Positions 16,532 through 55,300 of a stretch of DNA of 64,000 nt are shown piece after piece. The stretch is from assembly GCA_023511585.1 (NCBI GenBank), contig JAIMBF010000003.1:6537-70536 (forward strand). The letters run 5' to 3'. Position 1 is the first letter of the stretch, and each line of letters begins with the position of its first letter. Under the pieces are notes generated by a model. It searched no databases. It was given only the letters and a program-made list of their open reading frames with translations, and was not told the DNA's origin. Position numbers and translations under genes: made by a program. The stretch comes from Terriglobia bacterium. GTDB taxonomy: Bacteria; Pseudomonadota; Alphaproteobacteria; Acetobacterales; Acetobacteraceae.

Positions 16532-16537
16532 GCGCGG

Positions 16538-25292: not shown

Positions 25293-26444
25293 GTGCCCGC
25301 ATTGTGGCCGATATTTCGCAGCATGACTGAAACACCCGTGCAGAATGGCGGCCGGCGCCTCGAGAAACTCGATCCCGCAACCTGTTGGGCCGCTCTTTGT
25401 GCCCGCGATGCGCGTTATGATGGCAGGTTCGTCTATACCGTGAAAACAACAGGCGTCTATTGTCGGCCCTCCTGCCGTTCTCGGCTGCCGCGGTTCGAGA
25501 ATGTTACCTTTTTTCCCACCCCCGCCGAGGCCGAAAAAGCAGGGTTCCGGCCTTGCAAACGCTGCCGCCCGGCCGAACCCTCGCCGGTGGAACGCCACCG
25601 CCGCGCCATCGAGCGCGCCTGCGCGCTCATCCGCGACGCAGAGGCCGCGCTTGATCTCTCTCAACTTGCCGCGGCCGTGGGCATGAGCCGCCATCATTTC
25701 CACCGTGTTTTCACTGAGATCGTGGGCTCTACGCCGGGGGCCTATCTGCGCACCCATCGGTTGCGGCGTCTCGCGACGGAATTGGAGAGCGGCGTGCCCG
25801 TAGCCGAGGCGGTCTATGCCGCCGGTTTCACCTCGAGCTCGCGCGCGTATGCCGCAGCCCCCGGGGGCCTGGGAATGACGCCGGGCGCCAGGCGCCGCGG
25901 CGGTGCCGGACAAATCATCCGCTACGCGACTGCCCGAACTTGGATCGGCTGGGTCATCCTTGCGGTAAGCGCGCGCGGGGTCTGCGCTGTCGCCTTCGGA
26001 GACGAACCGGAATCTCTTGTGGCCGATTTGCGCCGACGCTTCGCTTCCGCCACCCTCATCGAAGACCGGAAAGATTTGCATTCCTGGATGCAAAAGCTCG
26101 TCGATTATTTGGCCGCACCGGGGGCAAGAGCGCTTGATTTGCCGCTCGATATTCAGGGCACTGCGTTTCAGGCGCGCGTTTGGCAGGCGCTTCGAAAAAT
26201 CCCGCCCGGGCAGACTGTCAGCTACGCCGATATCGCCGCCGCGCTCGGCCAGCCGAATGCCGTTCGCGCCGTGGCGCGGGCGTGTGCCAGCAACCCCATC
26301 GCACTCTTTATCCCCTGCCATCGTGCGGTGCGGTCCGACGGAGGGCTTGCGGGATATCGATGGGGCGTGGAACGCAAACGCGCCCTGCTCGCAGCGGAAA
26401 AGCGCAGCGCTGAGGAGGCACCGAAGAAGAAGAATCCGGGCTAA
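25293..26444 (+). CDS. ada: Bifunctional Ada: methylphosphotriester-DNA methyltransferase / AraC-type regulator / O6-methylguanine-DNA methyltransferase
   Basis: Ada zinc site (YCRPSCRSR ... PCKRCRP), AraC HTH (GMSRHHFHRVF), C-terminal Ogt domain with PCHRAV active site. The start may be Met 25323. Confidence 0.85.
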   Translation: MPALWPIFRSMTETPVQNGGRRLEKLDPATCWAALCARDARYDGRFVYTVKTTGVYCRPSCRSRLPRFENVTFFPTPAEAEKAGFRPCKRCRPAEPSPVERHRRAIERACALIRDAEAALDLSQLAAAVGMSRHHFHRVFTEIVGSTPGAYLRTHRLRRLATELESGVPVAEAVYAAGFTSSSRAYAAAPGGLGMTPGARRRGGAGQIIRYATARTWIGWVILAVSARGVCAVAFGDEPESLVADLRRRFASATLIEDRKDLHSWMQKLVDYLAAPGARALDLPLDIQGTAFQARVWQALRKIPPGQTVSYADIAAALGQPNAVRAVARACASNPIALFIPCHRAVRSDGGLAGYRWGVERKRALLAAEKRSAEEAPKKKNPG

Positions 26445-26477
26445 ACCGCCCGCCGCACCGCCGAAGCCGGCCAAGGC
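26169..26477. repeat. Direct repeat copy A (last 91 codons of ada, its stop codon, plus 33 bp downstream)
   Basis: Aligns without indels to 42701-43009 with 13 substitutions by manual alignment. Confidence 0.9.
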
Positions 26478-27142
26478 GAAGCCGCGCTCGCCGGCCGTAT
26501 CGCCGGCTCGAAGGGTGGGCGCGCCCGAGGTGGCCGAGGCGACCGATCCGCTGCCGGCGGAGATGTGGGCTGCCGAGCTGGCTGGGCTGCTCGCGTTCAC
26601 GTCGGGACAGCGCATCACCGATCCGGCCCGGCCGGCGTAATGTTTCGCGCCATTATCCGCTGGCCACTGAGCGGCCGATGGAAATCGGTTCTGCCGGAAT
26701 GGATTGTGGCGGGGTACTCCCGCCGCTGCCGCTCGGGAGTCGCTATCTCCGAGTCTGGGCTTTTTTCAGCTCCTTTCCGCCGATCCCACGTTTTCCGTCC
26801 TGTTCGGAGCCGCGCCAACTCTGCACTATGCGTTACGCCCGTTCGGGCAAATGCTGGGGCAAAACCATCCGGCCGCGTCTATCACTGCCCGAGCCATCGG
26901 CTGCGACCGAACCGGCACCGTACCAAAAAAGCTCCGCTTGTACCCGCGCCTGTTTGAGCCACAGACCTACCCCTGTTCCTGGGAGCACTGGTACTCAATC
27001 GCTGACAGCTCGCCTGTCACCGCCCGAGCAAAAACTCAAGACTTTCATCTCCTGATTAACAACAAACGCCTTCACCGTTCCGTCCGGACCAATGACATCG
27101 CCTATCATTGGTCATCAGCAGCAACGCCGCGGTTCAGCTCAA

Positions 27143-27982
27143 TCATTCAATCGGGGCTAACACAAAGTCGTAATAGGAGCGCCACACGGTGCGCCCATCT
27201 TGCACGCGCTCGAACGGCGCAATCAGACTGGCCTTTACCCCAAACACGGCATCGCTTTCGAGAAACGGGTCGTCGCCGACGAAGGTATGCGTGACCAGCC
27301 GTTGATAACCCGGTGCGGTGACCATGAAGTGCATATGCGCCGGCCGATACGGATGCCGCCCAAGCAGCCGCAGCAATTGTCCGACCGGCCCATCGTTCGG
27401 GATCGGATAGCTCACCGGCTTAATGCCGATGAACTCGTATTTTCCGTCCGATCCGGTGATGAAAACACCGCGATTGTTCCACTTATCCTGAATGCCGGGC
27501 TGTTGGACGGAATAGAACCCTTCGGCATTATCGGACCACACATCTACCCGTGCGCCTGCGATCGGCCGGCCTTGCAGATCAATCACGCGCCCGGTGTAGA
27601 GGCAGCTTTCCCCCTTTCCGTCGCTGGAGATATTGTCACCCATTTGCCGCTCCGGCGCACCTGCAACATAGAAGGGGCCGAGAACGGTGTTTTCCGTCGC
27701 GCCCGCGGGGCGGCGGTTGTTAATCGCATCAACCAGCATCGAAACGCCGAGCACGTCCGAAAGCAGGATAAATTCCTGCCTTTCGGCGCTGCACATCTGG
27801 CCGGTCTTGGTTAGGAAATCGATGGCTCTCTCCCACTCTTCTTGCGTGAGCTCCACCTCCTTGATGAAGGCATGCAGGTGGCGCACAAGCGCCGCCATCA
27901 CCCGCCGCAGGCGGGGCGGGGCATCAACGCTCATGCGGCCATTTACCGCCTCGATCGAGTTCTGTTCCGCGAAATATGTCAT
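27143..27982 (-). CDS. Intradiol ring-cleavage dioxygenase, hydroxyquinol 1,2-dioxygenase-like
   Basis: From MTYFAEQNS. Intradiol motifs LGPFYVAGAP and GRHPYRPAHMHFMV, next to maleylacetate reductase. Confidence 0.8.
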   Translation of the reverse strand: MTYFAEQNSIEAVNGRMSVDAPPRLRRVMAALVRHLHAFIKEVELTQEEWERAIDFLTKTGQMCSAERQEFILLSDVLGVSMLVDAINNRRPAGATENTVLGPFYVAGAPERQMGDNISSDGKGESCLYTGRVIDLQGRPIAGARVDVWSDNAEGFYSVQQPGIQDKWNNRGVFITGSDGKYEFIGIKPVSYPIPNDGPVGQLLRLLGRHPYRPAHMHFMVTAPGYQRLVTHTFVGDDPFLESDAVFGVKASLIAPFERVQDGRTVWRSYYDFVLAPIE

Positions 27983-27995
27983 CGTGTCTTCCTCC

Positions 27996-29060
27996 TTACG
28001 TCGGGCGTTCGCCCGCCCAAGCCCGTTCGAGCAACGCGAGAATCGCATCTCGCGTCACAGGCCGGGGGTTCCAGTAGGGATTCTGCACCGCGAGATCGGC
28101 CGCACGGTGCAGATCGCCTCGCGCAAGACCCAGCTCGCGCAACGCCAGCGGCGCACCGAGCGATTGCGCAAAATCCCAGAGTCCGCGGCCGAGATCGCCG
28201 CCAAACAACGCCGCTGCTGGCGCTAGTTCGGTCGCCGCCGTGGCCGCGTTATAAGCAGCGGTGTGCGGAATCAGCACGGCGTGCGTCTCGGCGTGCGGCA
28301 AATCGAACGAACCGCCCAGCGTGTGGCAGAGTTTGTGATGCAGCGCCATGCCAACGGTGCCGAGTACAGTTCCGCAGAGCCACGCCCCATATAGCGCACG
28401 CTCCCGGGCCGCCTCGTTGCGCGGCGCGTTCACGATCACCGGCAACGCATCCTTCAGCGCCCGAACTCCCTCCACGGCCATCCAGGCGGTGACAGGGTTT
28501 CGTTCCTGCGCATACAGCCCTTCGATCGCATGGGCTATGGCGTTCAGACCCGAGGTCACGCTCAGGCCTACCGGCAAGGTTTGTGTGAGCTCGGGATCAT
28601 AGATGACGACCTCCGGGAGCACTTTGGCGTCGCGAATGGTGGTTTTCATGCCGTTTTCGGTTTGGCCGAGAATCGGCGTAACCTCGGAGCCGGCATAAGT
28701 GGTGGGGATGACGAACTGCATCGTGTCATTGCGCCACGCGATTGCCTTGCCAAGCCCGATGGTTGATCCACCACCCAGCGCCACGATACAATCCGCCCGT
28801 GCCGCGGCGAAAGCACTCATTGCACGCGCGGTCACGTCGACTGGCGTATGCATCGCGGCTTCGGCGAATACGCCTGCCGCAAGATCCTTAAGCGAGGCGG
28901 CGAGTGCATGGGCCGCATCCTTTTGGGCGGGTGTCGACAAGATCAATGCGCGGTGCCGATCGGCAGCAGACAACTCCTCGGCCAGCCGGCTCACGCTACC
29001 GGCGCCGAATACGATGCGCGCCGGATTGAACCGGCACGCGAAGCACAAATTTTCGGCCAT
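27996..29060 (-). CDS. Maleylacetate reductase (iron-containing alcohol dehydrogenase family)
   Basis: 354-aa Fe-ADH fold (GGGSTIGLGKAIA; HKLCHTLGG) in the typical pairing with an intradiol dioxygenase. Confidence 0.8.
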   Translation of the reverse strand: MAENLCFACRFNPARIVFGAGSVSRLAEELSAADRHRALILSTPAQKDAAHALAASLKDLAAGVFAEAAMHTPVDVTARAMSAFAAARADCIVALGGGSTIGLGKAIAWRNDTMQFVIPTTYAGSEVTPILGQTENGMKTTIRDAKVLPEVVIYDPELTQTLPVGLSVTSGLNAIAHAIEGLYAQERNPVTAWMAVEGVRALKDALPVIVNAPRNEAARERALYGAWLCGTVLGTVGMALHHKLCHTLGGSFDLPHAETHAVLIPHTAAYNAATAATELAPAAALFGGDLGRGLWDFAQSLGAPLALRELGLARGDLHRAADLAVQNPYWNPRPVTRDAILALLERAWAGERPT

Positions 29061-29082
29061 ATCCCGGCTCTCGAATGAGGCG

Positions 29083-30150
29083 TTAAGTGCGCACGACGAT
29101 TTTCAGATGGTTGCCGGCGGGATCGAGCAGTGCTTCGAACCCCTTGGCCACCACATCGGCGGCGTCGATACGAGCGGTAATGACCTTTTCCACCGGAAAG
29201 GTGCCGGACGCGATCATCCGCGCAATGCGCGGCCAGCTCTGCACCGGATAACACCAGGTTGCTTCCAAGGTGATGTCTTTCAGGGCCCACTGCATCGCAT
29301 CGACGCTGGCGCGTTTGATGTGCAGCCCCACTTGCACCACCTTACCTTGCCGGCGTACCGCATCGGCGCAGGCGTTCAGCGACGCTTCCAGCCCCACGCA
29401 TTCCAGCGCCACATCGACGCCGACACCCTCCTCGGTCAGGTCGCGGACCACTTCTATCAGATTCTGCGTCCGGGGATCGACCGTGACGACATAAGGCGCA
29501 ATCTCGGCAATGATACGACGGCGGTTGGGATTCGGTTCGGAGACGATAATCAACGCGGCACCGGCGGCCTTGGCGGCCAATACGGTCAGCGCGCCAATCG
29601 GCCCGGCGCCCGAGACTAATACCGTAGACCCGGCCCGCACGCCGCCACGATCGACGCCATATAAGGCCACCGCGGCTGGCTCGATCATCGCACCCTGCTC
29701 TTCGCTCAACGTATCAGGAATTGGTTGGGCATTGTAATCCTTGATGACGGCCCGCTCAGCCATGCCGCCCCAGGCCCAACTGAGCCCCACGCAGCCCATT
29801 TTGGGCGAAAGATGATACAAGCCGCGCTTACCGTAATAATCATCGCGCGGGAACAAAAGCGGTTGGACGGAAATTCGGTCACCGGGTTTCACGTGGCTCA
29901 CCGCGGCGCCGACTTTTTTTACCCGCGCCGAAAATTCATGCCCTAGAATCTGCGGAATGACGGCGCCGGTGAAAACATGCGGCGTTTTCGGGGTTACGAT
30001 GGGACCGGCAACATATTCGTGCAGGTCGGTGCCGCAGATACCGGTGCAGAACGGTTCAACCAAAACTTCGTCCGGCGCCAAATTCTCGGGCGGCGGCGGC
30101 ACGTCCTCGACGCGAATGTCACGGGCGGCATGAAAGCGAACGGCACGCAT
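29083..30150 (-). CDS. Zinc-dependent alcohol dehydrogenase (butanediol/threonine dehydrogenase-like MDR)
   Basis: GICGTDLHEY catalytic-zinc motif and Rossmann VLVSGAGPIG; 355 aa. Confidence 0.85.
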   Translation of the reverse strand: MRAVRFHAARDIRVEDVPPPPENLAPDEVLVEPFCTGICGTDLHEYVAGPIVTPKTPHVFTGAVIPQILGHEFSARVKKVGAAVSHVKPGDRISVQPLLFPRDDYYGKRGLYHLSPKMGCVGLSWAWGGMAERAVIKDYNAQPIPDTLSEEQGAMIEPAAVALYGVDRGGVRAGSTVLVSGAGPIGALTVLAAKAAGAALIIVSEPNPNRRRIIAEIAPYVVTVDPRTQNLIEVVRDLTEEGVGVDVALECVGLEASLNACADAVRRQGKVVQVGLHIKRASVDAMQWALKDITLEATWCYPVQSWPRIARMIASGTFPVEKVITARIDAADVVAKGFEALLDPAGNHLKIVVRT

Positions 30151-30315
30151 AGTTCTCTCCCCCCTTGGTCAGCCATCTACTTTGGATAGTCGCTATCAGA
30201 GGACCGGGTATTCTGCGCTGCAAATTTCATCCAATATGGATTACTCGAATGTCTTGATATATTCTTCGCTCGAGTAACCTTAGCGTTCGTTGAACTACCA
30301 GCGCGGGAGACGGTT

Positions 30316-31233
30316 GTGACTAAGGCTCAGAATATCCAAGATGAAATCGGCTGGATCGGTGTCGGTAAAATGGGCAACCCGATGGCCACACGCCTGATGG
30401 AGGCCGGACATCGGCTCACTATTTGCGATCCGGTAGTCGAAAACCGGGCGAGTTTGGTTGCGCGCGGGGCCCGTGTGGCTGCTACGCCGGGGGAAGTGGC
30501 GGCGCGCTGCACGCTGATCTTCGCGACCATTCCCGACGACGGAGCGCTGGAAAACGTGATTTACGGCAACGAAGAGCACGGCAGCTTTCTCTCGTGCGTC
30601 GGTGCCGGGGTGGTGCTCGTGGAGATGAGCACTGTTTCGCCGTCACTATCGCGTCGTGTCGGGGAGGACCTTGCGCGCCGTGGCGTCGGATATTTGCGTT
30701 GCCCGATCTCGGGCAGTACGGCGCTGGCACGCGCGGGCTCGCTCACCGCGCTCGCTTCCGGCGATGCCACCGCCTGGGAGAGGGCGGTGCCGTTCCTCGA
30801 TGTGCTCGCCGCGCGTAAGTTTTATCTCGGCCCCGGAGAAGAGGCACGCTACATGAAACTGGTGCTCAACGCATTGGTCGGCGCCACTTCGGTCATTCTC
30901 GCTGAAGCATTGGCGCTCGGCGCGATCGGCGGATTGAGCGACGCCCAGATGATGGAGGTTATCGCCGAAAGTGCCATTGCGTCGCCTTTGATTCGTTACA
31001 AACAAGATATGATCGCACATCGAGACTTCCGCCCCGCTTTTTCCGTCGAACAGATGATGAAGGATTTTACCATCATCACCGATGCCGGCCGCGTCCATAG
31101 GGTGCCTCTCTTTGCCACCAACTTAATCCTGCAGCAATACACCGCCGCCGCAAGTGGTGGATACGCGGAAAAGGATTTTTTTGCAATGGTGGAATGGATG
31201 CGCTCCGCATTCAATCTTGACAACTACGTCTAA
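30316..31233 (+). CDS. NAD(P)-dependent oxidoreductase, 3-hydroxyisobutyrate dehydrogenase family
   Basis: N-terminal Rossmann IGWIGVGKMGNPMATRL; HIBADH-type length of 305 aa. Confidence 0.8.
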   Translation: MTKAQNIQDEIGWIGVGKMGNPMATRLMEAGHRLTICDPVVENRASLVARGARVAATPGEVAARCTLIFATIPDDGALENVIYGNEEHGSFLSCVGAGVVLVEMSTVSPSLSRRVGEDLARRGVGYLRCPISGSTALARAGSLTALASGDATAWERAVPFLDVLAARKFYLGPGEEARYMKLVLNALVGATSVILAEALALGAIGGLSDAQMMEVIAESAIASPLIRYKQDMIAHRDFRPAFSVEQMMKDFTIITDAGRVHRVPLFATNLILQQYTAAASGGYAEKDFFAMVEWMRSAFNLDNYV

Positions 31234-32990
31234 TGCCGCTCGGCAAGCGGAGGCAGACGATGACACAGACGAACCGCAAGCTATCCGACCACGAACTTTC
31301 CCGTATCATCGATTTCCTTCGCAAAATACGCCAGCCTTTCGACGCAGGTATTCCCGGCGCGAGCCCCGATATTTACTGGAACGTTGTGCTAGAATTGGTT
31401 GACACCCACCTGCAGCAGCGTCCCGTAGATATGTCAACGCTGATCCAATTATCGCAGGCGAGCTGGGGAACCGGCAATCGACTGATCAAGCGCATGATTG
31501 CAGAGGGCCTGATCGAACGTGTACCGCGAGGGCCAAAGAATAAAACTTTCTTCCTTGCTCCTAGCGAAAGGCTTGTAGAAAACTTTATCGAATACGCGAC
31601 CAAAGTGAAAGCACATTTGGCAAAAACCTTTGGTCTGCGCTCAGGCACAGAGACGGAAGAATACTATTTCGGCGGATCGTATTTTGCCGCGCACATCATT
31701 GCGCCGTTACATGGCGGCGATATCAGTTCTCTGCGTAACCTACGATTCCTACTCCATGATGACAATTATTTTGCAAGCATGCGTAATATGTGGTCGGACT
31801 TCCGCAATGATATCGGCCGCAAGAGCAGTTTCGATCTGCGTCCGTTGCCGGAATTGCTGACTGCGGCGGAATCCGCTCTCGGTAACCCTGTCGCCGCTTA
31901 TGATGTGGTGGCGATCAACATGCCTTGGCTTGGCCGCTTTGCGGACGCGGGACTACTGGCCCCTCTGGATGACGTTCTGCCGCAGGCACCGATCAATCCG
32001 CTGGATTTTCACCCCTCGGTGTGGAACACCGGCCGATGGAACGGGAAGCAATATGGAATCCCCATCTACTGCACGGTGGAAATCCTCACCGCTCGGCGCG
32101 ATTTGTTCGAGGCGGCGCAGCTTGCCTACCCGCGTACCTTCGATGAGACGATCGCCGCGGCCCGCAAGCTACATAGGCCGGAGAGGGAACAATACGGAAT
32201 CAGCTGGAACGGAGCGCGCGGTATGACCATAGCGCATGCTTTTATGTTTTTCATGGCATCTTCGCAGGGCTGCGTTCTCGAATTGCCGCGCCGCACGGAA
32301 AACTGGCTCGACTATCTCGATACGCAGAACTTGCGTTTACGTATCAACAGCGAAGAAGGTTTGGCGGCACTCGAATATATGCGACAGCTGGCCGAGGTGT
32401 CGCCACCGGGGGTAGAAACGTTTGATGCCGATCGCAATCTGGAATGCTTCATGGCGGGCTATACGGCGATGAGCTACGCATGGACCATGCGCGCCGCTCG
32501 GCTGGAATATGAGTTACGCTCAAAGGTGAAGCGACGCGTTACCTACTTGGCCCCGCCGGTGCTGCGAGGGCGGCCGGTCACCGCCCCGGTTGGCGGATTC
32601 CTGCTTACGATTCCGGCTTACGTTTCAGCCAAGCGTAAGCAAGAGATTTTCAACGCCATCGCCTGGATGGCTTCTCCCGAAGCGATGAAGGCCCATGTCA
32701 AAAACGGCTTTCCGGTTGCTCCACGCTTTTCGGTCTGTGCCGATCCAGAGGCGCTGGCTTCTTCACCGATCGTTAGCTTTATTGATCGCCTTGCACGGCG
32801 CAACGAGTTGAATACCTGGTCACGCCCGCCAGTGCGCGAATATATCGAGATCGAACGGATCCTCGGCGAGGAAGTCTTTGCGGCCGTGTTCGAGGGCAAA
32901 TCACCAAAGCGCGCTTTGGCCGATGCCGAAGCGGCCGCTTATCGTTGCATTCGCGAGCGGGGCTCGGCGCGCAACGTCCTGGCCGCTTAG
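31233..32990 (+). CDS. Cytoplasmic winged-HTH domain fused to an ABC-type solute-binding-protein fold (putative one-component regulator)
   Basis: The N-terminal ~130 aa have a wHTH-like segment (STLIQLSQASWGTGNRLIKRMIAEGLIERV). The remaining ~450 aa resemble family-1 extracellular solute-binding proteins (DVVAINMPWLGRFADAGLLAPLDD). There is no signal peptide or hydrophobic N-terminus. Overlap TAATG with the upstream gene. Confidence 0.6.
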   Translation: MPLGKRRQTMTQTNRKLSDHELSRIIDFLRKIRQPFDAGIPGASPDIYWNVVLELVDTHLQQRPVDMSTLIQLSQASWGTGNRLIKRMIAEGLIERVPRGPKNKTFFLAPSERLVENFIEYATKVKAHLAKTFGLRSGTETEEYYFGGSYFAAHIIAPLHGGDISSLRNLRFLLHDDNYFASMRNMWSDFRNDIGRKSSFDLRPLPELLTAAESALGNPVAAYDVVAINMPWLGRFADAGLLAPLDDVLPQAPINPLDFHPSVWNTGRWNGKQYGIPIYCTVEILTARRDLFEAAQLAYPRTFDETIAAARKLHRPEREQYGISWNGARGMTIAHAFMFFMASSQGCVLELPRRTENWLDYLDTQNLRLRINSEEGLAALEYMRQLAEVSPPGVETFDADRNLECFMAGYTAMSYAWTMRAARLEYELRSKVKRRVTYLAPPVLRGRPVTAPVGGFLLTIPAYVSAKRKQEIFNAIAWMASPEAMKAHVKNGFPVAPRFSVCADPEALASSPIVSFIDRLARRNELNTWSRPPVREYIEIERILGEEVFAAVFEGKSPKRALADAEAAAYRCIRERGSARNVLAA

Positions 32991-35540: not shown

Positions 35541-35605
35541 TGTGCCACAATCAGCAACACGGCCCCGCGCGAGCGCACCCGCCGGGGCCGTTAAGGGTTC
35601 GCGTG

Positions 35606-36667
35606 TTACTTGTTCACGGCCTTAGCTTGTTCTTCAGGCGATAGTTTCGCCGAAAGATAGATGGCACCGGGCAGGTCACGGCGACACTGCACGGGATGCG
35701 GTTGGCCCGTTACCGAATTTTCAAATACCGGCGCTTTGAAAATCTGCTCCGAGGGCAATTTGCCGCCGGTTACCTCGGCCACCGCCCAGTCGATCGCCAA
35801 GCGAACGTTGTCGTTACCGGTTGCCACAGTGAACAGCTTGAAATCAGGATTTTCCTTGTGGTTGTCGATCCAGAAGCAGCCCAGAGAATTGCCGTCGGAA
35901 GTAGCGAGCGCCGGGATTGAACGATTGAACTTCTTGAACACCGGGAGCGCGCCAACCAAAGATGGCCCGAAATCGGAAACGATCACGTCGATTTTCGGGT
36001 TTTTGGCAATCTCGGCCGTTAATACCTGCTGGGTGAGCGAAGGATCCCAGTTTGTCACGTCGAACGGCGCCGGGTTGAGGAATTTATATTTGTCGTCCAG
36101 CACCGACTTGAGGCCCGCCAACTCATCAAGGCCCTGGCTGTTGCCGGCCGGACCGCTCAAAAACAGCAGATTGCCGCCGTTGGGCAGGATGGCCTTGATC
36201 CATTTGCCCCAATTCTCACCGTCATTCTTGAACGAAGAACCGATGAAAACCGTGTAGTTGCGACCGGCTTTGCCGCCCACATCGACGCGATACGGCACGA
36301 CAACTTTGCCCGCCTTATAGACTTCGGTAAGCGCCGGCAGTACCGCCGGACCGGCATCGCCAAACACCACCAGTGCGTCGATGCCGCGTGCGGCCATGCT
36401 TTTGATGTCGGAAATCGCCTTCTGGGTGTTGCCCTGACCATCGGCATACTCAAACCGCGTAATGCTAGGGCAGAGCGAGGCTTCTTGTTTGCCCGAAGCG
36501 GCGGTTACCAGCCGCCAACTGTTGCCGCCGAAGCCGTCGAGTAGGGCAAGTGTCGCTTTTTTTGGCCCACACCACGAGGGTACCTCAGCTCGGGCAGTAC
36601 TGCTAAAGGCAAGGGCAACAGCAGCAGCGGTCAGCGCCATGACGCCGCTACGGAACAATCGCTTCAT
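35606..36667 (-). CDS. Periplasmic sugar-binding protein (RbsB/type-I PBP-like)
   Basis: Signal peptide MKRLFRSGVMALTAAAVALAFSSTARA; 353 aa; lies between the permease and ATPase genes. Confidence 0.85.
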   Translation of the reverse strand: MKRLFRSGVMALTAAAVALAFSSTARAEVPSWCGPKKATLALLDGFGGNSWRLVTAASGKQEASLCPSITRFEYADGQGNTQKAISDIKSMAARGIDALVVFGDAGPAVLPALTEVYKAGKVVVPYRVDVGGKAGRNYTVFIGSSFKNDGENWGKWIKAILPNGGNLLFLSGPAGNSQGLDELAGLKSVLDDKYKFLNPAPFDVTNWDPSLTQQVLTAEIAKNPKIDVIVSDFGPSLVGALPVFKKFNRSIPALATSDGNSLGCFWIDNHKENPDFKLFTVATGNDNVRLAIDWAVAEVTGGKLPSEQIFKAPVFENSVTGQPHPVQCRRDLPGAIYLSAKLSPEEQAKAVNK

Positions 36668-37712
36668 TCTTGTTCTCCTCTGTGTCTGGTTGTTTTTCGA
36701 ATGGTTTTATCGGCTCTGCGCCTTTTGTGACGCGCCGGGGCCGCCGTAACGAATAGACGGCAATGCCTAAGCCAAGCGCGAAGGCCTGAATGATGGTTTG
36801 GGCCGAGTACGGCACGCCGATGGCGAGTGCAAACTGGCTCAGTTGATTCAAAAAGAACGCAGCAATGGCGGTTGAAATCGGAAAGCCTCGTCCGCCAAGC
36901 AACGATGTTCCGCCCAACACCACCACCGCGACGGAAGGCAGCAGCAACGGGTCGCCCTGAAAGGCTGTGGGTTCGCGCGTGATCCCCGCGATCAGCAAAC
37001 CGGCAATGCAATAGAGAATCTGCGCGCAAACATAGGCCATGGTTTGGTGCAGCCGCACCCGTAGGCCAACGGCGCGCGCTGCCCGCGGATTTGCACCAAT
37101 AGCCTCGAAGCGGCGGCCGATCACGGTCTTTTTCAACACGAAGCAGACCACAATCAGAATCGCCAGCGCGAACCACACCGCATTGGCAATGCCGAACGTT
37201 TCGCCCCCGGCAATCGCTGCCAAAAGCGATGTGGTGGTCCTCGGCACACCGCCCGAGACGGCAAAGACCCCACCGTAAATTAAGGCATTCATGCCGATGG
37301 TGGCGACGATAGCGTTCAATCGCAGCACGCCCACCAGAATGCCGTTCAACACGCCGGCCGCCAACGCGCAGCCGAGCGCCATCAGGATTGCTCCCGGCAG
37401 CGCAGCGTTTTCGCCCGCTGGGACATGCGTTGCGATCACCACCGCGAGCGAGACACCACCGGCAACCGACAGGTCAAAACCACCCTGCTGCACCACCAGC
37501 ATCTGTGCTAGCCCCACAATCGCCAGCACCGCTGCGAACGGCAGGCTTCCCGCCAGCGCCCCCGGTGCGATCGCAGAGGGTGTCACGAGAGCGCACACCA
37601 CCAGGAGCGCCAGTGTCGAGACGACGATCGTCACAAATCCCCGCGCAAGCGGCAGCGCACCCGGGCGAAGCGGCACGGGGATAGCGATCGGTTTGTCTGC
37701 GGTTAGGTTCAT
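36648..37712 (-). CDS. ABC transporter permease (RbsC-like)
   Basis: Highly hydrophobic multi-TM ORF. ATG 37712 (MNLTADKP) lies 8 nt after AAGGA; the listed start at 37748 is a TTG. Confidence 0.8.
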   Translation of the reverse strand: MNLTADKPIAIPVPLRPGALPLARGFVTIVVSTLALLVVCALVTPSAIAPGALAGSLPFAAVLAIVGLAQMLVVQQGGFDLSVAGGVSLAVVIATHVPAGENAALPGAILMALGCALAAGVLNGILVGVLRLNAIVATIGMNALIYGGVFAVSGGVPRTTTSLLAAIAGGETFGIANAVWFALAILIVVCFVLKKTVIGRRFEAIGANPRAARAVGLRVRLHQTMAYVCAQILYCIAGLLIAGITREPTAFQGDPLLLPSVAVVVLGGTSLLGGRGFPISTAIAAFFLNQLSQFALAIGVPYSAQTIIQAFALGLGIAVYSLRRPRRVTKGAEPIKPFEKQPDTEENKNEAIVP

Positions 37713-37753
37713 CTCCTCATTCCTTGGACGTCCGCCCGCTCGCGGCAACGCAC

Positions 37754-38734
37754 TTACGCGATTTCTAGCGTAACCTTCACCGCCTTCTGGAGATCCTTGC
37801 CGACTTCCAATGCAGTCAGAGCCTGATCAATCGGGAAACTATGGGTTTGAATCGGCGAAAGGTCGATCTGGGTTCGTTCCAAGAAACGGATCGCGGCGGG
37901 CCAGACGCCCGGCGAGCCAATGCAGCCTTTTACCGACAAGTTCTTGATCTGGATTTTGCCCAACTCCACCGGAATCTTTTGGCCGATATTAATACCGACC
38001 ATCGAGATTTTGCCCTCGGGGCGTGCGTAGTCGAACACATTGGCCAACGAAGCGGCATGACCGGCGCATTCCACCACGAGATCAGCACCACCCTTGGTCA
38101 GCTCCTGTACCGCTTCAACAGGATCGCCGGCCGTAGGATCAACCGTTGCCTCTGCACCCAGCCGTTGAGCAATCTCACGGCGCAGGGGCACGGGATCAAC
38201 CACGATGACACGCGCGCCCATGCCAATCGCCGCCGCCGCCGTCACCAACCCGATAGTGCCGCCGCCGGAGACGACCACGGTATCGGCCGCATTCACGCCG
38301 CCATGGCGCATCACCGCGTAGTAGCCACAGGTGAAAGGTTCGATCATTGCGCCTTTGGCATCGTCCACCGCATCGGGCAGTTTGTGCAACCATTCTGGGC
38401 GAGCGGTGAAATACTCGCGATCGGCTCCGTCCATCGAGAAGCCGAAATGGTGAATCCGCTCCGGCGTGCGAATCACGCATTCACCGACTACCCTATCACC
38501 GGGCGCAAACCCTTTGACATTGGCGCCCACATCAACCACCTCGCCCACCCATTCATGGCCGGGCGTGACCGGGTAGGAGATCGGGATGATGTAGCGCCCG
38601 GCCAGCAATTCGTAATCCGAATGGCAAATGCCGACGCGGCGCGAGCGAATCAGCACGTCGTTTGCCGTCATCTTGGGCATTTGCACCTGGGTTACGACCG
38701 GTTTGTTAGGCGCATCGAAAATCAGCGTTTTCAT
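37754..38734 (-). CDS. Zinc-dependent alcohol/polyol dehydrogenase (sorbitol dehydrogenase-like MDR)
   Basis: From MKTLIFDAPNKP (ATG 38734). Has GICHSDYE, GHEWVGEV and the Rossmann VVSGGGTIG. The upstream ORF extension is not protein-like. Confidence 0.85.
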   Translation of the reverse strand: MKTLIFDAPNKPVVTQVQMPKMTANDVLIRSRRVGICHSDYELLAGRYIIPISYPVTPGHEWVGEVVDVGANVKGFAPGDRVVGECVIRTPERIHHFGFSMDGADREYFTARPEWLHKLPDAVDDAKGAMIEPFTCGYYAVMRHGGVNAADTVVVSGGGTIGLVTAAAAIGMGARVIVVDPVPLRREIAQRLGAEATVDPTAGDPVEAVQELTKGGADLVVECAGHAASLANVFDYARPEGKISMVGINIGQKIPVELGKIQIKNLSVKGCIGSPGVWPAAIRFLERTQIDLSPIQTHSFPIDQALTALEVGKDLQKAVKVTLEIA

Positions 38735-38762
38735 GAACTCCTCCTCAGACTGCAGTGACCGG

Positions 38763-39821
38763 TTAGGCGACGGGTTCGATTTTGCCGCTGCGTGCGGAGA
38801 CGAACACCGCCTCCAGTAACGCGATGGTGTTGATGAGATGATCGGCCGTAATTGGGTACGGCTCGACACCTCGGATCGCGCGCGCAAAAGCCACCAGATT
38901 GTCTTTCACCGGCTCCGCCGGGGGTACCTCAACCGTTCTGGTCGGACCGCCCGTAATCGCCGAAGTGACGATCCAGCCGTCCGGCGCTTCGACATGGGCT
39001 TTGTCGCGTATATCCACCCAGCCCCTCGCGCCGAAAACAGCGAAGCGTGAGATGAACGGATTGGCGAGCGAAGCGGACACATAAGCCGTGCCTCCATGCC
39101 GGAATTTTATGAACGCCGCCACCGTATCGCCTTGCGGCAAATCCGATGACAATCGCTCGCAGATACACCACACGCTCTCCGCGGGGCCCAGCAAGCGAAC
39201 CGAGAGATCGAGTAGGTGGATGCCCGTTGCCGTCATCCCGCCGGCTGGCGCGTGCTCGGCGTTCAACCGCCAATTGTCGCGATTGAGTGTGAGAAACTTG
39301 TCGTGGCTGAAATTCGCCTCAATCTGATGGATGCGTCCCAGCACGCCGGCATCGGCTTTGGCCATGAGGTCAGCAATCGGCGGCTCCCATCGGCGCTCAT
39401 GCCCCATGCCGAGAACAAGCCCTGCTTCGCGGCACAACGCTACGGCACGCTCTGCCCCCGCTTTGGTCAGCGCGAGTGGTTTTTCGCAAAACACATGCTT
39501 GCCCGCTGTCACAGCCGCGGCGATCTGGGCCTCGTGCAACGCATGCGGCGTCGCCAGTATCACCGCTTCAACCTGGGGGTCGCTCAGCGCGTCGGCATAA
39601 TCCGCCGTAAGCGCCACGCCGCGCGAAGCACACAATGCACGTACCGCACTCACGTTGGGCTCGACCGCTCGCACCACGCGAATCTCGTGCGGCACGGTGT
39701 CGAGCACAGATAACATTTTTCTGCCCCACCAGCCCATGCCGATCAGGGCAACACGCACAGGTTCTTCTCTCACCGGTTGTCCACGCGCTTGTGAAACGGA
39801 TGAATGGAGATGGTTTGCCAA
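38763..39821 (-). CDS. Gfo/Idh/MocA-family oxidoreductase
   Basis: Has VRVALIGMGWWGRKM Rossmann and the EKP motif (FCEKPLA). The alternative start GTG 39773 forms a GTGA overlap with the upstream YciI-like stop and may be the real start. Confidence 0.85.
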   Translation of the reverse strand: MANHLHSSVSQARGQPVREEPVRVALIGMGWWGRKMLSVLDTVPHEIRVVRAVEPNVSAVRALCASRGVALTADYADALSDPQVEAVILATPHALHEAQIAAAVTAGKHVFCEKPLALTKAGAERAVALCREAGLVLGMGHERRWEPPIADLMAKADAGVLGRIHQIEANFSHDKFLTLNRDNWRLNAEHAPAGGMTATGIHLLDLSVRLLGPAESVWCICERLSSDLPQGDTVAAFIKFRHGGTAYVSASLANPFISRFAVFGARGWVDIRDKAHVEAPDGWIVTSAITGGPTRTVEVPPAEPVKDNLVAFARAIRGVEPYPITADHLINTIALLEAVFVSARSGKIEPVA

Positions 39822-40054
39822 AGCCCGATGGCGTAGAATGGATCGTTGCGGTTAAACGCTTCCACCTCGGCCAAATTCTCGGCTTCCACGAGAAAGCAAC
39901 TGCCGATCATGGTTTTTTCATCATCGGCGAGAAGCGGGCCGGAAATTAAGGTTTTGATTTTTGCACCCGCCAGGTAAGCCCTGTGCGCGTCGTAATGCGC
40001 AAGCCGCTTCTCGACGGAATTAGGGTGATCAAGACAGTGGATAACGTAGTGCAT
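39770..40054 (-). CDS. YciI-family protein
   Basis: 94 aa starting MHYVIHCLDHP...RLAHYDAHRAYL...GPLL...GSCFLVEAENLAEVEAFNRNDPF, typical of YciI-like proteins. Confidence 0.75.
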   Translation of the reverse strand: MHYVIHCLDHPNSVEKRLAHYDAHRAYLAGAKIKTLISGPLLADDEKTMIGSCFLVEAENLAEVEAFNRNDPFYAIGLWQTISIHPFHKRVDNR

Positions 40055-40075
40055 CGGAAAAATTCCTTGCGGTTG

Positions 40076-41146
40076 TCACGCGGGGATAATCCGTTTTGCC
40101 CGCAACTCGTCGAAGACGTCGAAGAAGCTGCGGGTGGTCTGTTGATAGGCCGTGAAGCCTCTTGTGCGGCTATTTGTCATATCGGTGAAGCATTCCAGCG
40201 TGCGGCCAAGATCAGCATCGCTGTGCCACCATGAGGCAAGGCGGTCTACAGAAATGTCCTGCAGCCCATGCTTCGCTACAATTTCGGCCCAGATTGCCGG
40301 TGCTTCAACCATTTGCTTCTCGAGCGGCGTGGGATGGCCGGGATAATCGCCGACTGCCAGGCCGAAATAATCCGCAATCTGCTGCCACAACCACGTCCAA
40401 CGAAATAAGTCTCCATTGACCACGTTGAACGGCACGTTGGCGGCCTCAGGTGTGGTAGCCGCCCAGTACAATTGTTTTGCCAGCATGCGGGCATCGGTCA
40501 CATCGGTCACTGCGTGGTACTGTTCCGGAGAGCCGGGAAACACAAATGGGCGGCCGGTATGTTTGCAAATAGAAGCATAGACTGCCAACGTCACGGCCAT
40601 GTTCATGGCATTGCCGATAACAAATCCGATCAACGTGTGCGGCCGATGGACCGACCAAGTGAAACCGCGCTGTGCCGCCGCCTCAAACAGCACGTCCTCC
40701 TGAGCGTAGTAGAAATTTGGCCCCGGTAAGCGCGGGCTGTTTTCTAAAAACGGCGTATAGGGTTTGACCTTAGCGTAATCGTCGAACGATCCCAGATAGT
40801 GTTTCAGCCCCGTCACCAGTGCCGCGTGGCGGAGCGGCGCACCGGCGAGGCCGGTGAATAGGTTTTTGATCATCGCCGCATTTACGCGGACGTTTTCTAC
40901 TTCGTTAGCCTGGCGTGACCAAGTGCAGTAAAACACGTGCGTCACATCCCGCGCTGCTGCCAGCGCAGCTTTCGTTGCCGTCGCGTCTTCGAGATTGACT
41001 GCGATGTGGCGATGGGACCACGGTATATCAACCGCACCGCGCGAGAGGGTGACGACCTGCCAACCCTGCTGCTTCAGATAACGCCCCGCATAACTGCCGG
41101 AAAGTCCTGTTGCCCCGACAATTAGTGCAACCTGATCATTGCTCAT
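40076..41146 (-). CDS. Extended SDR / NAD-dependent epimerase-dehydratase-like oxidoreductase
   Basis: From MSNDQVALIVGATGLSGSY (ATG 41146); about 356 aa; extended-SDR-like. Confidence 0.7.
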   Translation of the reverse strand: MSNDQVALIVGATGLSGSYAGRYLKQQGWQVVTLSRGAVDIPWSHRHIAVNLEDATATKAALAAARDVTHVFYCTWSRQANEVENVRVNAAMIKNLFTGLAGAPLRHAALVTGLKHYLGSFDDYAKVKPYTPFLENSPRLPGPNFYYAQEDVLFEAAAQRGFTWSVHRPHTLIGFVIGNAMNMAVTLAVYASICKHTGRPFVFPGSPEQYHAVTDVTDARMLAKQLYWAATTPEAANVPFNVVNGDLFRWTWLWQQIADYFGLAVGDYPGHPTPLEKQMVEAPAIWAEIVAKHGLQDISVDRLASWWHSDADLGRTLECFTDMTNSRTRGFTAYQQTTRSFFDVFDELRAKRIIPA

Positions 41147-41411
41147 GTTGCCAGCCTTGTGTTTGCGACGACCCAGGAAGTGATATTTAAGGTGTGCCAC
41201 AGCCTCATGCTTTGTGGCCGAAAGGAGTCATGGGCTCATCCAACCAACGGATCGCTCCTGAATACAAAACACTTCCTCAACCGTTCTCTTGTGAGGTTGG
41301 CAGAACGTTTGCAGTCTAAAAGGCGCATCGCAGCATCCAAAAAACGCGTCCTTGCCATTGGAGAGGGCCCCTCTTGTCCAGTTTGGATAACTCTCTTGCC
41401 ATGCGATTCCT

Positions 41412-42197
41412 TCAAATCAAAACCATGCCACCATCCGCCATGATGACTTGACCGGTGATGCAATCGGAGTCCGATGACGCCAGGAAAGCCGCCGTGCCAC
41501 CAAGATCTTCGGGCTTTGAAGGATGACCGATCAGAATGCTTGATGAGAAACTTTCGATGAATTCGCCCTTCTGACGGATCACGCCCTTGTCGATCATATC
41601 TTGCTCTAGCCCGTCCCAAAGCGGTGTCACCACCACCCCGGGTGCGAAAGCGTTAACGGTAATCTTGTATTTAGCGAGTTCGCGCGCGCCGGCCTGCGTC
41701 AGCGAAATGACCGCAGCCTTGCTGGCGCAGTAAGGCGCGAATTCCGGATAACCCTGCCGTCCAGCGATCGAGGCGGTGTTGATGATTTTGCCTCCATGCC
41801 CTTGGGCGATCATCTGCCTGGCAGCCTCTTGCATGCCGATCAGCACAGCAAGAGCGTTGACGCGCATGATCGCATTGAAATTTTCTTCGTCAACATCGAA
41901 GAAGGGCAGAGGCTTGTTGAAGCCAGCGTTGTTGAACATGATGTCGATATGGCCGAATGCCACGACGGTTTCGGCGATCATTGCTTTAACTTGCCGGCGG
42001 TCAGCCACATCCACCGCGACCGCGATTGCCCGATATCCGTCGGTCCGTAACGAGCTTGCGACGGCCTCGGCCTTTGCCGCATTCAGATCCGCGACTACAA
42101 CCTGAGCACCCTCTACCGCCAGGCGCCGCACGATGCCTTCGCCTATCCCCTGTGCCGCGCCGGTGACAATAGCTACACGCCCTGAGAGCCGGCTCAT
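41412..42197 (-). CDS. Classical SDR (acetoin reductase / butanediol dehydrogenase-like)
   Basis: From MSRLSGRVAIVTGAAQGIG (ATG 42197). Has NNAG and YCASKAA motifs. The upstream ORF extension to 42404 was rejected. Confidence 0.85.
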   Translation of the reverse strand: MSRLSGRVAIVTGAAQGIGEGIVRRLAVEGAQVVVADLNAAKAEAVASSLRTDGYRAIAVAVDVADRRQVKAMIAETVVAFGHIDIMFNNAGFNKPLPFFDVDEENFNAIMRVNALAVLIGMQEAARQMIAQGHGGKIINTASIAGRQGYPEFAPYCASKAAVISLTQAGARELAKYKITVNAFAPGVVVTPLWDGLEQDMIDKGVIRQKGEFIESFSSSILIGHPSKPEDLGGTAAFLASSDSDCITGQVIMADGGMVLI

Positions 42198-42573
42198 ACC
42201 GTTATCATCCGACAGTCTAAAAGTGCGGTTTCTTTTGCAACGTACAGCATTTCTAAATCCTCCCACGAGCTCATCGCAGCCAACCGAGAGCAAGTCGGCA
42301 CTGATCACCCAAGTTGTTTGCGGCCGCCCTCGGGTGAGACCGCTCTTGTCTTCAAATCGGACGATGCGGACACAGCCGGCAGGGCGGCGATAAAAATGTA
42401 TCAAGACCGCGTGGGCCGGTATCGACTATTTTATCCATATCGGATCAATTATTCGGCCATACGTAAACAAGCCGAAAAAGAGTTGATCCGAAGCGGTTTT
42501 TTTAGAAGTGGCAATAAAGGGATTCCCGCAGGAACGGAGGTGTGATTCAAGCTTTTCGTTTGGGAGGCTTGAT

Positions 42574-42700
42574 CATGCAGAGATATGAGCTGACGGATTT
42601 TGAATGGGGTGTGATTGCGCCGTTGCTGCCGAACAAGCCGTGCGGCGTTCGGGGGTGGATGCCCGGCGGTTTCTGAACCGGATTTTTTGGGTCTTGCAAA
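42574..42700 (+). mobile_element. Degraded N-terminal fragment of an IS5-family (IS427/IS1031-like) transposase gene
   Basis: MQRYELTDF / EWGVIAPLLPNKP / VDARRFLNRIFWVLQTGA are readable only across three frames (at least two frameshifts). The fragment stops abruptly at the junction with repeat copy B. Confidence 0.55.
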
Positions 42701-42976
42701 CAGGCGCGCGTTTGGCAGGCGCTCCGAAAAATCCCGCCCGGGCAGACTGTCAGCTACGCCGATATCGCCGCCGCACTCGGCCAGCCGAATGCGGTCCGCG
42801 CCGTGGCGCGGGCGTGTGCCAGCAACGCCATCGCACTCTTTATCCCCTGCCATCGTGCGGTGCGGTCCGACGGAGGGCTTGCGGGGTATCGATGGGGCGT
42901 GGAACGCAAACGCGCCTTGCTCGCAGCGGAAAAGCGCAGCGTTGAGGAGGCACCGAAGAAGAAAGATCCGGGCTAA
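42701..42976 (+). pseudogene. 5'-truncated ogt/ada fragment (last 91 codons, PCHR site intact, no start codon)
   Basis: Reads QARVWQALRKIPPGQTVSYADIAAALGQPNAVRAVARACASNAIALFIPCHRAVRSDGGLAGYRWGVERKRALLAAEKRSVEEAPKKKDPG*. The frame is closed by TGA at 42674-42676, and no ATG, GTG or TTG codon lies between that stop and the repeat boundary at 42701. Confidence 0.8.
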
Positions 42977-43009
42977 ACCATCCCCCGCACCGCCGAAGCC
43001 GGCCAAGGC
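42701..43009. repeat. Direct repeat copy B (displaced 3' end of an ada/ogt gene)
   Basis: 309 bp collinear with 26169-26477, with 13 substitutions and no indels. Confidence 0.9.
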
Positions 43010-46092: not shown

Positions 46093-46094
46093 GC

Positions 46095-55079: not shown

Positions 55080-55300
55080 CTCGTAGCATGCGCACGATGT
55101 CCGGCGCTGCTCGCGCTGATTTCTCACGCCTTGCGTTGTACCGGCCGATCTGCCACCCTATTCGTCGGACCTCAACCGATCGCGCAGGCCTTCCCCAAGA
55201 TCAAACACTGGATGCGCTCCGCCCGGAAGCGCACCGTCGAGGACGCCTGGCGCCACATCGGCAACCTCGTCCAGGGCGATGCCTCGCCCAACAGCAAGGC
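55080..55300 (+). mobile_element. Degraded C-terminal fragment of an IS630-family transposase gene
   Basis: ADLPPYSSDLN in one frame continues as PIAQAFPKIKHWMRSARKRTVEDAWRHIGNLV in another (frameshift near 55160). This matches the LPPYSPDLNPIEQAF.KLK region of IS630 transposases. There is no N-terminal part, and the fragment begins right after the helicase stop. Confidence 0.55.

Follow-up and report, generated by a model that had tools for sequence, protein, structure and literature searches.

RESULTS

Genes and features between ada and tRNA-Arg(ACG)

The analyzed stretch of DNA (the window, 64,000 nucleotides in length, to which all positions refer) carries an intact ada gene followed by a catabolic cassette, a defence operon of the ARMADA type and a cellulose synthase operon, together with remnants of two insertion sequences and a second copy of the ada 3' end (Table 1). 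The ada product matched the Pfam families Ada_Zn_binding, HTH_18/AraC and DNA_binding_1, and the start chosen by gene callers (25323) gives a protein of 373 aa. This ada belongs to a cluster (P0001) that was 99% identical and lay in an identical core context across other assemblies. Reference genomes were unusable for synteny, the genus being represented among them by this genome alone and the best Ada match being 54% identical, and a scan of genome contigs for Ada yielded distant homologues only.

Table 1. Positions of the features described in the text.
Feature	Position	Strand	Description
ada	25293..26444	+	Bifunctional Ada regulator/O6-methylguanine-DNA methyltransferase, intact
Repeat copy A	26169..26477	+	Last 91 ada codons, stop codon and 33 bp; native allele
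tRNA-Arg(ACG) 3' acceptor-end copy	26518..26529	-	12 nt, exact; GGCGCGCCCGAG on the + strand
Catabolic cassette	27143..42404		Pfam and NCBIfam matches
IS5-family 5' stub	42516..42705	+	Left end, leader and ~43 frameshifted codons of a DUF4096-type transposase
Repeat copy B	42701..43009	+	3' fragment of a second, more diverged ada allele; pseudogene
ARMADA-type defence operon	43180..55075	+	Three genes; Pfam and PADLOC matches
IS630-family 3' transposase stub	55120..55320	+	Directly after the defence operon; frameshifted, without the 5' three-quarters
Cellulose synthase operon	55501..64000	-	Accessory ORF, GH8 bcsZ, bcsD, bcsC, bcsB; Pfam matches

The catabolic cassette encodes an intradiol dioxygenase, an Fe-ADH-type (maleylacetate-reductase-like) enzyme, two Zn-dehydrogenases, a HIBADH-like reductase, a 585-aa solute-binding-protein-like product, a GFO/IDH/MocA oxidoreductase, a PRISE-like reductase and an SDR, as well as a sugar-type ABC importer composed of a fused ATPase-permease, a binding protein and a permease. 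Its core was found as a conserved cluster, with 65-92% amino-acid identity, in many metagenome contigs, and in none of them did it adjoin ada. Family-level homologues of the block's genes were 50-58% identical, as was the case for the core gene Ada, and an exact-protein look-up of the dioxygenase returned no record. A comparison of composition between the block and the genome, a kind of check that the preliminary description had also proposed, favored neither side: the tetranucleotide distance of the block fell at the 87th percentile of the genome, not as an outlier, so that composition neither supports nor refutes its acquisition.

The ARMADA-type operon consists of a SNF2/BrxHII-like helicase, a PglX/DrmMI-like methylase and a YprA-like helicase with an MZB/DUF1998 domain, an architecture that matches a published description (PMC12458937). 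This segment was a compositional outlier (98th percentile of tetranucleotide distance), and the nearest non-self homologue of its helicase in the donor search was 79% identical and lay in an unrelated context. When the two frames of the IS630 stub were joined, tblastn against annotated IS630-family transposases (plasmids) gave 64-86% identity (E ~1e-16); a Pfam search of the stub gave no match. The cellulose synthase operon also includes bcsA and bcsQ, which lie past the end of the window, and it reaches window-equivalent position 67499; beyond it lie tRNA-Arg(ACG) and then the core genes FTHFS, SDR, Nramp and CysS. The tRNA gene itself is outside the window, at window-equivalent 68080-68155 (C131:74616-74691) at the end of its contig, and the right flank continues on contig C77; a Logan contig that shows the physical linkage (SRR15214128_709) matched C77 at 100% identity.

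A direct repeat of the ada 3' end

Pairwise alignment of 26169-26477 (copy A) with 42701-43009 (copy B) was free of gaps over its 309 columns and showed 13 substitutions, the number that the preliminary description had counted by hand. The homology ended abruptly at either side, the longest identical stretch between the copies was 58 bp, and the repeat occurred twice in the whole 3.14 Mb assembly. Recounting the coding part (91 codons) also returned the ten differences reported before, seven of them synonymous and three replacements (P>A, A>V, N>D), and both copies retained the stop codon and the PCHR active site, as had been claimed for the truncated one. The synonymous share of the coding changes (7/10) was significant (P = 0.004), and dN/dS between the copies was 0.14. 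With this ratio and this share of synonymous changes, copies A and B diverged as functional alleles under purifying selection and not through decay of a local duplicate, in agreement with the earlier reading.

The stretch 26324-42754, including the junction between the IS5 stub and copy B, was covered by Logan contigs assembled from metagenomes of coal, hot springs and wood decay, and separate Logan contigs extended from 42856 rightwards into the defence operon. Sequencing depth was uniform over the region. A chimeric assembly as the origin of the repeat was ruled out, and the repeat was accepted as real, because independent metagenome assemblies agreed and the depth was even.

Strain-variable content between ada and tRNA-Arg(ACG)

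Relatives L028-L030, including the sister species L028, carry ada, 15 nt, tRNA-Arg(ACG) and FTHFS in this order, with the insert absent. Relatives L021-L026, including the conspecific strain L021 (98.5% identical), carry ada, an unrelated island of 5.4 kb and the same tRNA, and the breakpoint of that island lies 12 bp past the ada stop codon, not at the repeat ends. Synteny with L021 extended over 11 kb on the left and 4.6 kb on the right, at 98.5-98.7% identity, while the interiors were unrelated. The content between the two core flanks amounts to 0 kb, 5.4 kb or 41.6 kb across relatives, and conserved core genes flank accessory content that differs among conspecifics, as in an integrase-free hotspot. 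The 41.6 kb comprises, from ada rightwards, the 12-nt tRNA repeat, the catabolic cassette, the IS5 stub, the ada fragment, the ARMADA operon, the IS630 stub, the cellulose operon and the tRNA.

Judged by these comparisons, the variable unit is the entire 41.6 kb from ada to tRNA-Arg(ACG), all of it island material. The preliminary description had regarded 26478-42700 as acquired cargo; its accessory nature held up, this DNA being absent from L021 and from the sister species, but its extent did not, the unit being 41.6 kb. Ada joined to the sequence right of 43009, one of two arrangements that had been anticipated in relatives, was not seen; the other, ada followed by a different island, was.

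Copy A as the native end and copy B as an import

Copy A was identical to L021 at 10 of the 13 sites at which the two copies differ. This match to a conspecific strain that has no such block shows copy A, the one attached to ada, to be the native end of the working gene, and the earlier proposal that it was the surrogate 3' end of an element is contradicted. Copy B agreed with the sister species L028 at columns 24, 75, 127 and 186, where it keeps the ancestral states. Polarization with L028 gave the topology ((A, L021), B), L028, a result that relies on 13 informative sites only and on a pattern that is not fully clean; at columns 264-265, L021 was matched by copy B and not by copy A.

The divergence of copy B from L021 was 4.7%, whereas that of the core flanks was 1.5% on the left (11.1 kb) and 1.3% on the right (4.6 kb). 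Since copy B branches outside the clade of A and L021 while both core flanks show ordinary divergence, it is DNA imported from a diverged relative and not the displaced original fragment, which the distal copy had been taken to be. The reading frame of copy B opens only at 42677 and no start codon lies upstream of the fragment; it is a remnant that no longer codes, and the ada allele from which it stems belonged to a lineage outside that clade. A full-length B-type ada followed by ARMADA was found in none of the genomes and contigs searched, and the exact B-type ada pattern had 0 matches among JGI metagenome contigs.

The IS5 junction and the tRNA repeat

The IS5-family stub (Pfam match DUF4096) is cut off within the transposase gene. 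Another IS5 remnant in the genome, at C96:13988-14178, was 90% identical to the stub, and other IS5 copies in metagenomes continue with ...AACAGGCACACCGTGG. Comparison with two independent IS copies placed the end of the IS homology at 42705 and the beginning of the ada homology at 42701, which leaves a 5-bp overlap, CAGGC. The join thus links two unrelated sequences, one from within an IS5 transposase gene and the other from within ada, at a short microhomology, as in illegitimate recombination. Because the left edge of copy B lies inside a truncated transposase gene at a 5-bp microhomology, the join is an illegitimate junction and not an attachment site, and the island-style integration into the ada 3' end proposed in the preliminary description was not borne out. 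The same junction was present in a strain whose right-hand part was ~1% diverged, so that the junction is older than the split from that strain. The idea that the coal strain and this strain had crossed over exactly at copy B was also considered and was rejected, as divergence between the two already began at 42452, within the IS stub and to its left.

The 3' end of tRNA-Arg(ACG) faces the island, and the sister species lacks the insert, as would be seen after insertion of an island at the tRNA. The 12-mer beside ada that copies the tRNA acceptor end occurred 9 times in the genome on both strands, and its chance occurrence in this orientation at ≤100 nt from ada was ~1e-4. It is only 12 nt long, and it may be an old displaced att half-site. 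No integrase, intact or remnant, was found in any ORF from ada to the tRNA, small tRNA-adjacent ORFs included; the 580-bp spacer beside the tRNA showed no integrase similarity, and the first gene after it is bcsQ. The earlier statement that no integrase gene is visible in the enclosed block was thereby upheld and extended to the full distance from ada to the tRNA. The 12-nt repeat suggests that an integrase, lost since, once mediated an insertion at the tRNA.

DISCUSSION

Proposed history of the locus

The 309-bp repeat is a product of ordinary recombination and not the footprint of an element that integrated itself. We consider it fairly probable that it is a recombination scar at the seam of two accessory cassettes that were stacked in the strain-variable hotspot between ada and tRNA-Arg(ACG). 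A related lineage would have carried the ARMADA cassette 33 bp downstream of its ada, and a fragment starting inside that ada and running into the ARMADA cassette would have entered the present lineage. An illegitimate join may have linked its left end to the interior of the IS at the border of the resident catabolic cassette, either on entry, by homology-facilitated illegitimate recombination, or later, by a microhomology deletion. The arguments that the fragment arrived with the right-hand cassette and not with the left-hand one are indirect. Its right end may have been resolved at or past the IS630 stub. No site-specific recombinase would have been involved. A donor among diverged relatives is supported by the 4.7% divergence of copy B from L021, set against 1.3-1.5% for the core, and by the ancestral states that it keeps. 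The right core flank shows ordinary divergence, and the IS630 stub at 55.1-55.3 kb is a candidate end of the imported tract. RecA-dependent crossover between copies A and B could still delete the catabolic cassette; the search of contig data for a deletion or circle junction returned only spurious short-sided joints, contigs being prone to drop rare variants.

Alternative explanations

Direct repeats flanking an insert are the exact topology of a single crossover, and a Campbell-type insertion was weighed, although we think it unlikely. In a diverged relative, an illegitimate join would have closed a 16.5 kb circle comprising the 3' piece of ada-B, the tRNA half-site, the catabolic cassette and the IS5 stub. 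RecA crossover would then have inserted this circle into the 3' end of a resident ada that already had ARMADA 33 bp downstream, and copy B would have arrived with the left-hand, catabolic cassette. This requires the same microhomology junction, the catabolic core is a portable and widespread cluster, and columns 264-265 are consistent with a crossover near column 250. However, at each of the eight informative sites in columns 24-242, copy A has the native state and copy B the foreign one, which confines the crossover to the last 67 bp, and columns 281 and 284 oppose a crossover upstream of them, leaving a target of 25 bp. Neither a circular nor an empty form was seen in contig data, from which rare variants are dropped.

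Slightly less probable again is C-terminal displacement, which retains the polarity of the preliminary description but works without an integrase; it has been put forward to explain how 3' regions come to be orphaned in rhs and T6SS effector arrays (PMC5361080). Here the resident would have had the B-type ada with ARMADA, and the incoming DNA, carrying an A-type ada end and the catabolic cassette, would have been anchored by homology upstream of or within ada; an illegitimate join of its far end within the resident ada would have pushed the resident 3' end downstream. The microhomology junction is consistent with such an event. The flanks should then differ from L021 by ~4.7%, but they differed by 1.5% on the left (11.1 kb) and 1.3% on the right (4.6 kb); an import of >27 kb would be needed, and the right flank would still be unexplained.

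The preliminary description had favored a site-specific integrative element that entered the ada 3' end with a surrogate 3' end and was immobilized after loss of its integrase. Accessory DNA bracketed by direct repeats that include a gene 3' end, and the allele-like divergence of the copies, are what such an element would leave, yet we now hold this to be very improbable, since the model is contradicted on three defining features: no integrase or remnant occurs across the 41.6 kb, the left repeat edge is an IS-internal junction, and the copy attached to ada is native and not a surrogate. In relatives, moreover, ada is followed by tRNA-Arg or by another island with its breakpoint 12 bp past the stop codon. 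A duplication of the ada 3' end within this genome, tandem or segmental, with decay of the second copy, for which the shared orientation of the copies on one contig might speak, is scarcely credible and was refuted by outgroup polarization, as copy B keeps four ancestral states lost in A and L021 and so predates their split, and 7 of the 10 coding changes are synonymous with no indels and no stop codons.

Significance and comparison with known systems

Read as the seam of two stacked cassettes, the locus is a clean, datable case of integrase-free hotspot growth, in which one import from a diverged relative has left its record in an orphaned core-gene fragment and a microhomology junction. It also cautions that a long direct repeat of a gene 3' end need not be an att scar. 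The classes of mechanism are already well established, and this is a known kind of event that raises no new question. A broader reading, which we consider unlikely, is that core-gene fragments serve as portable homology handles carried by integrase-free cassettes and provide a landing pad for stacking, swapping and deletion; if true, this would be a general mechanism of cassette capture for whole islands, analogous to C-terminal displacement in rhs and T6SS loci.

The prophages phage 21 and e14 integrate into a coding gene, icd of E. coli, and replace its 3' end with one of their own; in these elements the copy joined to the gene is the surrogate, and the integrase lies beside the att site. 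The present locus resembles them in that inserted DNA is bracketed by a direct repeat which takes in a gene 3' end and whose differences are mostly synonymous, but here the gene-attached copy is native, an integrase is absent and one repeat edge is IS-internal. It resembles tRNA islands of tyrosine integrases in that the island abuts the 3' end of tRNA-Arg(ACG), is absent from the sister species and has a 12-nt copy of the tRNA 3' end at the far boundary beside ada. Unlike in those islands, no integrase or remnant was found, the repeat is short, and the interior is mosaic, with IS stubs between at least three cassettes.

Homology-facilitated illegitimate recombination is said to have been described by de Vries and Wackernagel in 2002 and by Prudhomme et al. 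in 2002. At rhs loci and in the T6SS effector-immunity arrays of Vibrio cholerae, C-terminal displacement leaves orphaned 3' regions (PMC5361080). Common to these systems and the present locus are a conserved gene's 3' piece that is left orphaned between one module and the next, one junction in unrelated DNA with a microhomology of a few bases, and a diverged relative as the donor. The locus differs from the displacement arrays in that the orphaned piece is an import and not a displaced resident, and the modules are islands of 12-16 kb and not toxin tips; the homologous anchor was not located.

The locus also resembles HGT hotspots (regions of genome plasticity) between conserved core genes, reported, it is said, by Oliveira and colleagues in 2017, many of which are integrase-free and turn over through recombination in their flanks. 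The flanks were likewise constant in all relatives here (DUF488 and ada on one side, tRNA-Arg and FTHFS on the other) around variable content, and the cargo includes metabolic, defence and surface-polysaccharide genes with IS debris and without an integrase. What sets this locus apart from such hotspots is that a fragment of a flanking core gene has been carried into the hotspot interior, where it records the arrival of one cassette.

The repeat downstream of ada

BLAST with ada found only two copies in the 3.14-Mb assembly: copy A, attached to ada, and copy B, beyond a catabolic cassette (see table). Their gap-free alignment spanned 309 columns and held 13 substitutions, and the similarity ended sharply on both sides when the alignment was extended by 200 bp each way. 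The coding part, 91 codons, contained seven synonymous and three replacement differences (P to A, A to V, N to D), and the PCHR active site and stop codon were intact in both copies; the counts in the preliminary description were exact on recount. The longest identical run was 58 bp, so that the cassette could still be lost through the repeats.

An assembly artefact was ruled out by even read depth over the region and by spanning Logan contigs. Contigs from a coal run and a hot-spring run extended from 26324 to 42754 or 42563, and the left junction of copy B was crossed by a 1400-bp contig from a wood-decay run. Contigs running rightward from 42856 measured 17-25 kb in the coal and hot-spring runs and 131 kb in another hot-spring run (SRR15214128).

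Features between ada and tRNA-Arg(ACG), in window coordinates
Feature	Position	Description
ada	25293-26444	full Ada protein: zinc domain, AraC helix-turn-helix, methyltransferase domain
Copy A	26169-26477	attached to ada
Catabolic cassette	right of copy A	intradiol dioxygenase, Fe-ADH-type (maleylacetate-reductase-like) gene, several dehydrogenases
Catabolic cassette, further genes		585-aa solute-binding-protein-like gene; sugar-type ABC importer
IS5-family 5′ stub	42516-42705	directly left of copy B; transposase frame frameshifted, ends after about 43 codons
Copy B	42701-43009
Defence operon, three genes	43180-55075	SNF2 helicase, PglX/DrmMI-like methylase, YprA-like helicase with MZB domain
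IS630-family transposase gene, 3′ stub	after defence operon	frameshifted
Cellulose synthase (bcs) operon	after IS630 stub
tRNA-Arg(ACG)	just outside window, very end of contig	- strand

The site in relatives

No close relative was found among reference genomes, and relatives were reached via exact-protein look-ups of Ada cluster members. In a sister species (Ada 84% identical), the gene order was MinCDE, RtcB, archease, DUF488, ada, 15 nt, tRNA-Arg(ACG), FTHFS, SDR, Nramp and CysS, which is the empty site. A conspecific strain, the abundant or sole type in soil, mine and several hot-spring runs, was 98.5% identical across 11.1 kb upstream of the breakpoint, parted from our genome 12 bp past the ada stop codon, and carried an unrelated 5.4-kb island between ada and the same tRNA. 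At its locus L021 the island (11135-16563) encoded DUF6650, an RHH protein, an HD-domain protein, an HTH-peptidase M78 (ImmA/IrrE-like) and small unknown proteins but no integrase, and may be a defence or prophage-remnant cassette.

Our own right flank (contig C77) matched, at 100% identity, a Logan contig on which copy B, the defence operon, the bcs operon, the tRNA and the genes from FTHFS onward are physically linked; over 4.6 kb, the right flank of this contig shared 98.7% identity with the conspecific strain. From these arrangements and the linked right flank, the variable unit extends from about 26457 to the tRNA, 41.6 kb in all, rather than being confined to the 16 kb that the repeats enclose and that had been taken as inserted. 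No integrase or recombinase domain was found in any ORF from ada to the tRNA, nor in the spacer beside the tRNA, as the preliminary description had noted for the enclosed block.

An exact 12-nt copy of the tRNA 3′ end was present in the right orientation at 26518-26529, 41 bp beyond copy A. This 12-mer occurs nine times genome-wide, and the probability of its lying by chance within 100 nt of ada in the same orientation is about 1e-4; it resembles a half-site displaced when an integrase once made an insertion at the tRNA. The assembly is broken precisely within tRNA-Arg(ACG) (end of this contig, window-equivalent 68080-68155, and contig C77), and several Logan contigs end there too, which fits samples in which strains with different islands at this tRNA occur together. 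Another strain-specific indel lies in the left core region: the conspecific strain that is abundant in a wood-decay metagenome lacked 1268 bp at 8452-9721, including a 346-aa ORF (8578-9618).

Origin of copy B

The 13 differences were polarised with the conspecific strain and the sister species. The conspecific strain agreed with copy A at columns 24, 75, 93, 96, 127, 186, 217, 242, 281 and 284 and with copy B at columns 264 and 265; column 280 had three different states. The sister species agreed with copy B at columns 24, 75, 127 and 186, so the states common to copy A and the conspecific strain are derived, while the changes at columns 93, 96, 217 and 242 (three of four synonymous) were unique to copy B. 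These patterns give the tree ((A, conspecific), B), sister. Copy B differed from the conspecific strain by 4.7%, compared to 1.3-1.5% for both core flanks, and dN/dS between the copies was 0.14; 7 of 10 changes were synonymous, where neutrality predicts 26% (P = 0.004).

Copy B is foreign, and from the tree, the divergence and the dN/dS it is thus a piece of a once-functional ada allele of a more distant lineage; the host's own ada end and flanks are ordinary. The proposed divergence of the alleles while functional was borne out, and the proposed polarity, with copy B as the displaced native end, was rejected.

The junction left of copy B

In two independent copies of the IS5-family element (a remnant on contig C96; others in metagenomes), ...AACAGGC continues into ACACCGTGG; at this locus it continues into GCGCGTTTGG, which is ada. 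IS homology ends at 42705 and ada homology begins at 42701, so the two overlap in CAGGC. The junction, interior to two genes with 5 bp of microhomology, bears the hallmark of illegitimate recombination rather than of transposition or site-specific integration. The copy B frame opens first at 42677 with no start codon ahead of the fragment, and expression as a protein is not predicted in any obvious way. The C96 remnant (13988-14178) was 90% identical and internally deleted, with the N-terminal region joined straight to the DDE region; no intact copy of the element was seen in our assembly.

Content of the variable unit

The content is mosaic. The core of the catabolic block (Zn-dehydrogenase, HIBADH-like reductase, 585-aa binding-protein-like gene, ABC importer, Zn-dehydrogenase, GFO/IDH/MocA oxidoreductase, PRISE-like reductase) is a conserved cluster with 65-92% amino-acid identity in many metagenome contigs, none of which had ada beside it. 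The dioxygenase was patchy in family relatives, with identities reaching 58%, comparable to the 54% of the core gene Ada, so family-level phylogeny does not mark the block as alien, nor does composition (87th percentile). Synteny does show that it is accessory; the claim that the enclosed DNA was acquired was right in spirit. The 585-aa gene (31233-32990) had no NCBIfam match, yet dozens of metagenome contigs carry it, at 60-85% identity, in the equivalent place within the cluster. In the coal strain, a tract of about 620 bp (40727-41349), in and just past the PRISE-like gene, had about 6% differences in an otherwise identical block and appears to be a short segment acquired by recombination from a more divergent allele.

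The architecture of the defence operon fits published ARMADA systems. Its composition was an outlier (98th percentile), and homologues of its helicase from outside the helicase's own cluster reached at most 79% identity, with similar ones spread over many phyla. In the coal strain, the middle of the methylase gene (47807-48654, 49055-49185, 49437-49642) was replaced by unlike sequence (873 vs 846 letters) in an operon otherwise about 1% diverged, which looks like a target-recognition region swap between strains. At 62100-64000 and beyond (locus L031, 8100-12714), bcsA and bcsB are separate, overlapping ORFs; they are fused as one 1527-aa gene in a near-identical Logan contig, form open frames of about 1550-1600 aa in family relatives, and are split elsewhere in other strains. 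The split reflects either operon decay or assembly frameshift errors.

Proposed history

We are confident that the repeat marks a seam, where an imported relic was joined illegitimately without an integrase. The complete history, with its direction of import, is somewhat favoured: a diverged relative would have carried the ARMADA cassette 33 bp downstream of its ada, and a fragment beginning inside that ada would have entered our lineage and been joined inside an IS5 element bordering a resident catabolic cassette. The join may have been made on entry, by homology-facilitated illegitimate recombination (PMC5361080 and references therein; PMC3240628), or afterwards, by deletion at a microhomology. 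Arrival together with the right-hand cassette is favoured by the compositional bias of ARMADA, by the distribution of its helicase, and by the eight informative sites of columns 24-242, every one of them cleanly native in A and foreign in B. On the far side of the operon lies another inward-truncated IS stub. The junction was also present in the coal strain and is therefore older than the split from it; over 18.4 kb of left core, that strain and our genome had 3 base differences, and from 42452 rightward they were about 1% apart.

Campbell-type integration of a circle with the catabolic cassette matches the repeat topology, but a single crossover inside the repeat gives the pattern at columns 24-242 only in its last few tens of bases, requiring a position within the last 25-67 bp. 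C-terminal displacement with a resident B-type ada agrees with the published mechanism, but the flanks would then be expected to show B-level divergence, and they do not. The integrase-driven element with a surrogate 3′ end, as first proposed, fails three defining features, and that proposal was incorrect in mechanism as well as in polarity and extent. Local duplication of the ada 3′ end is refuted by the outgroup states. The locus adds a new case of a known type of event, at a hotspot linked to a tRNA and free of integrases.
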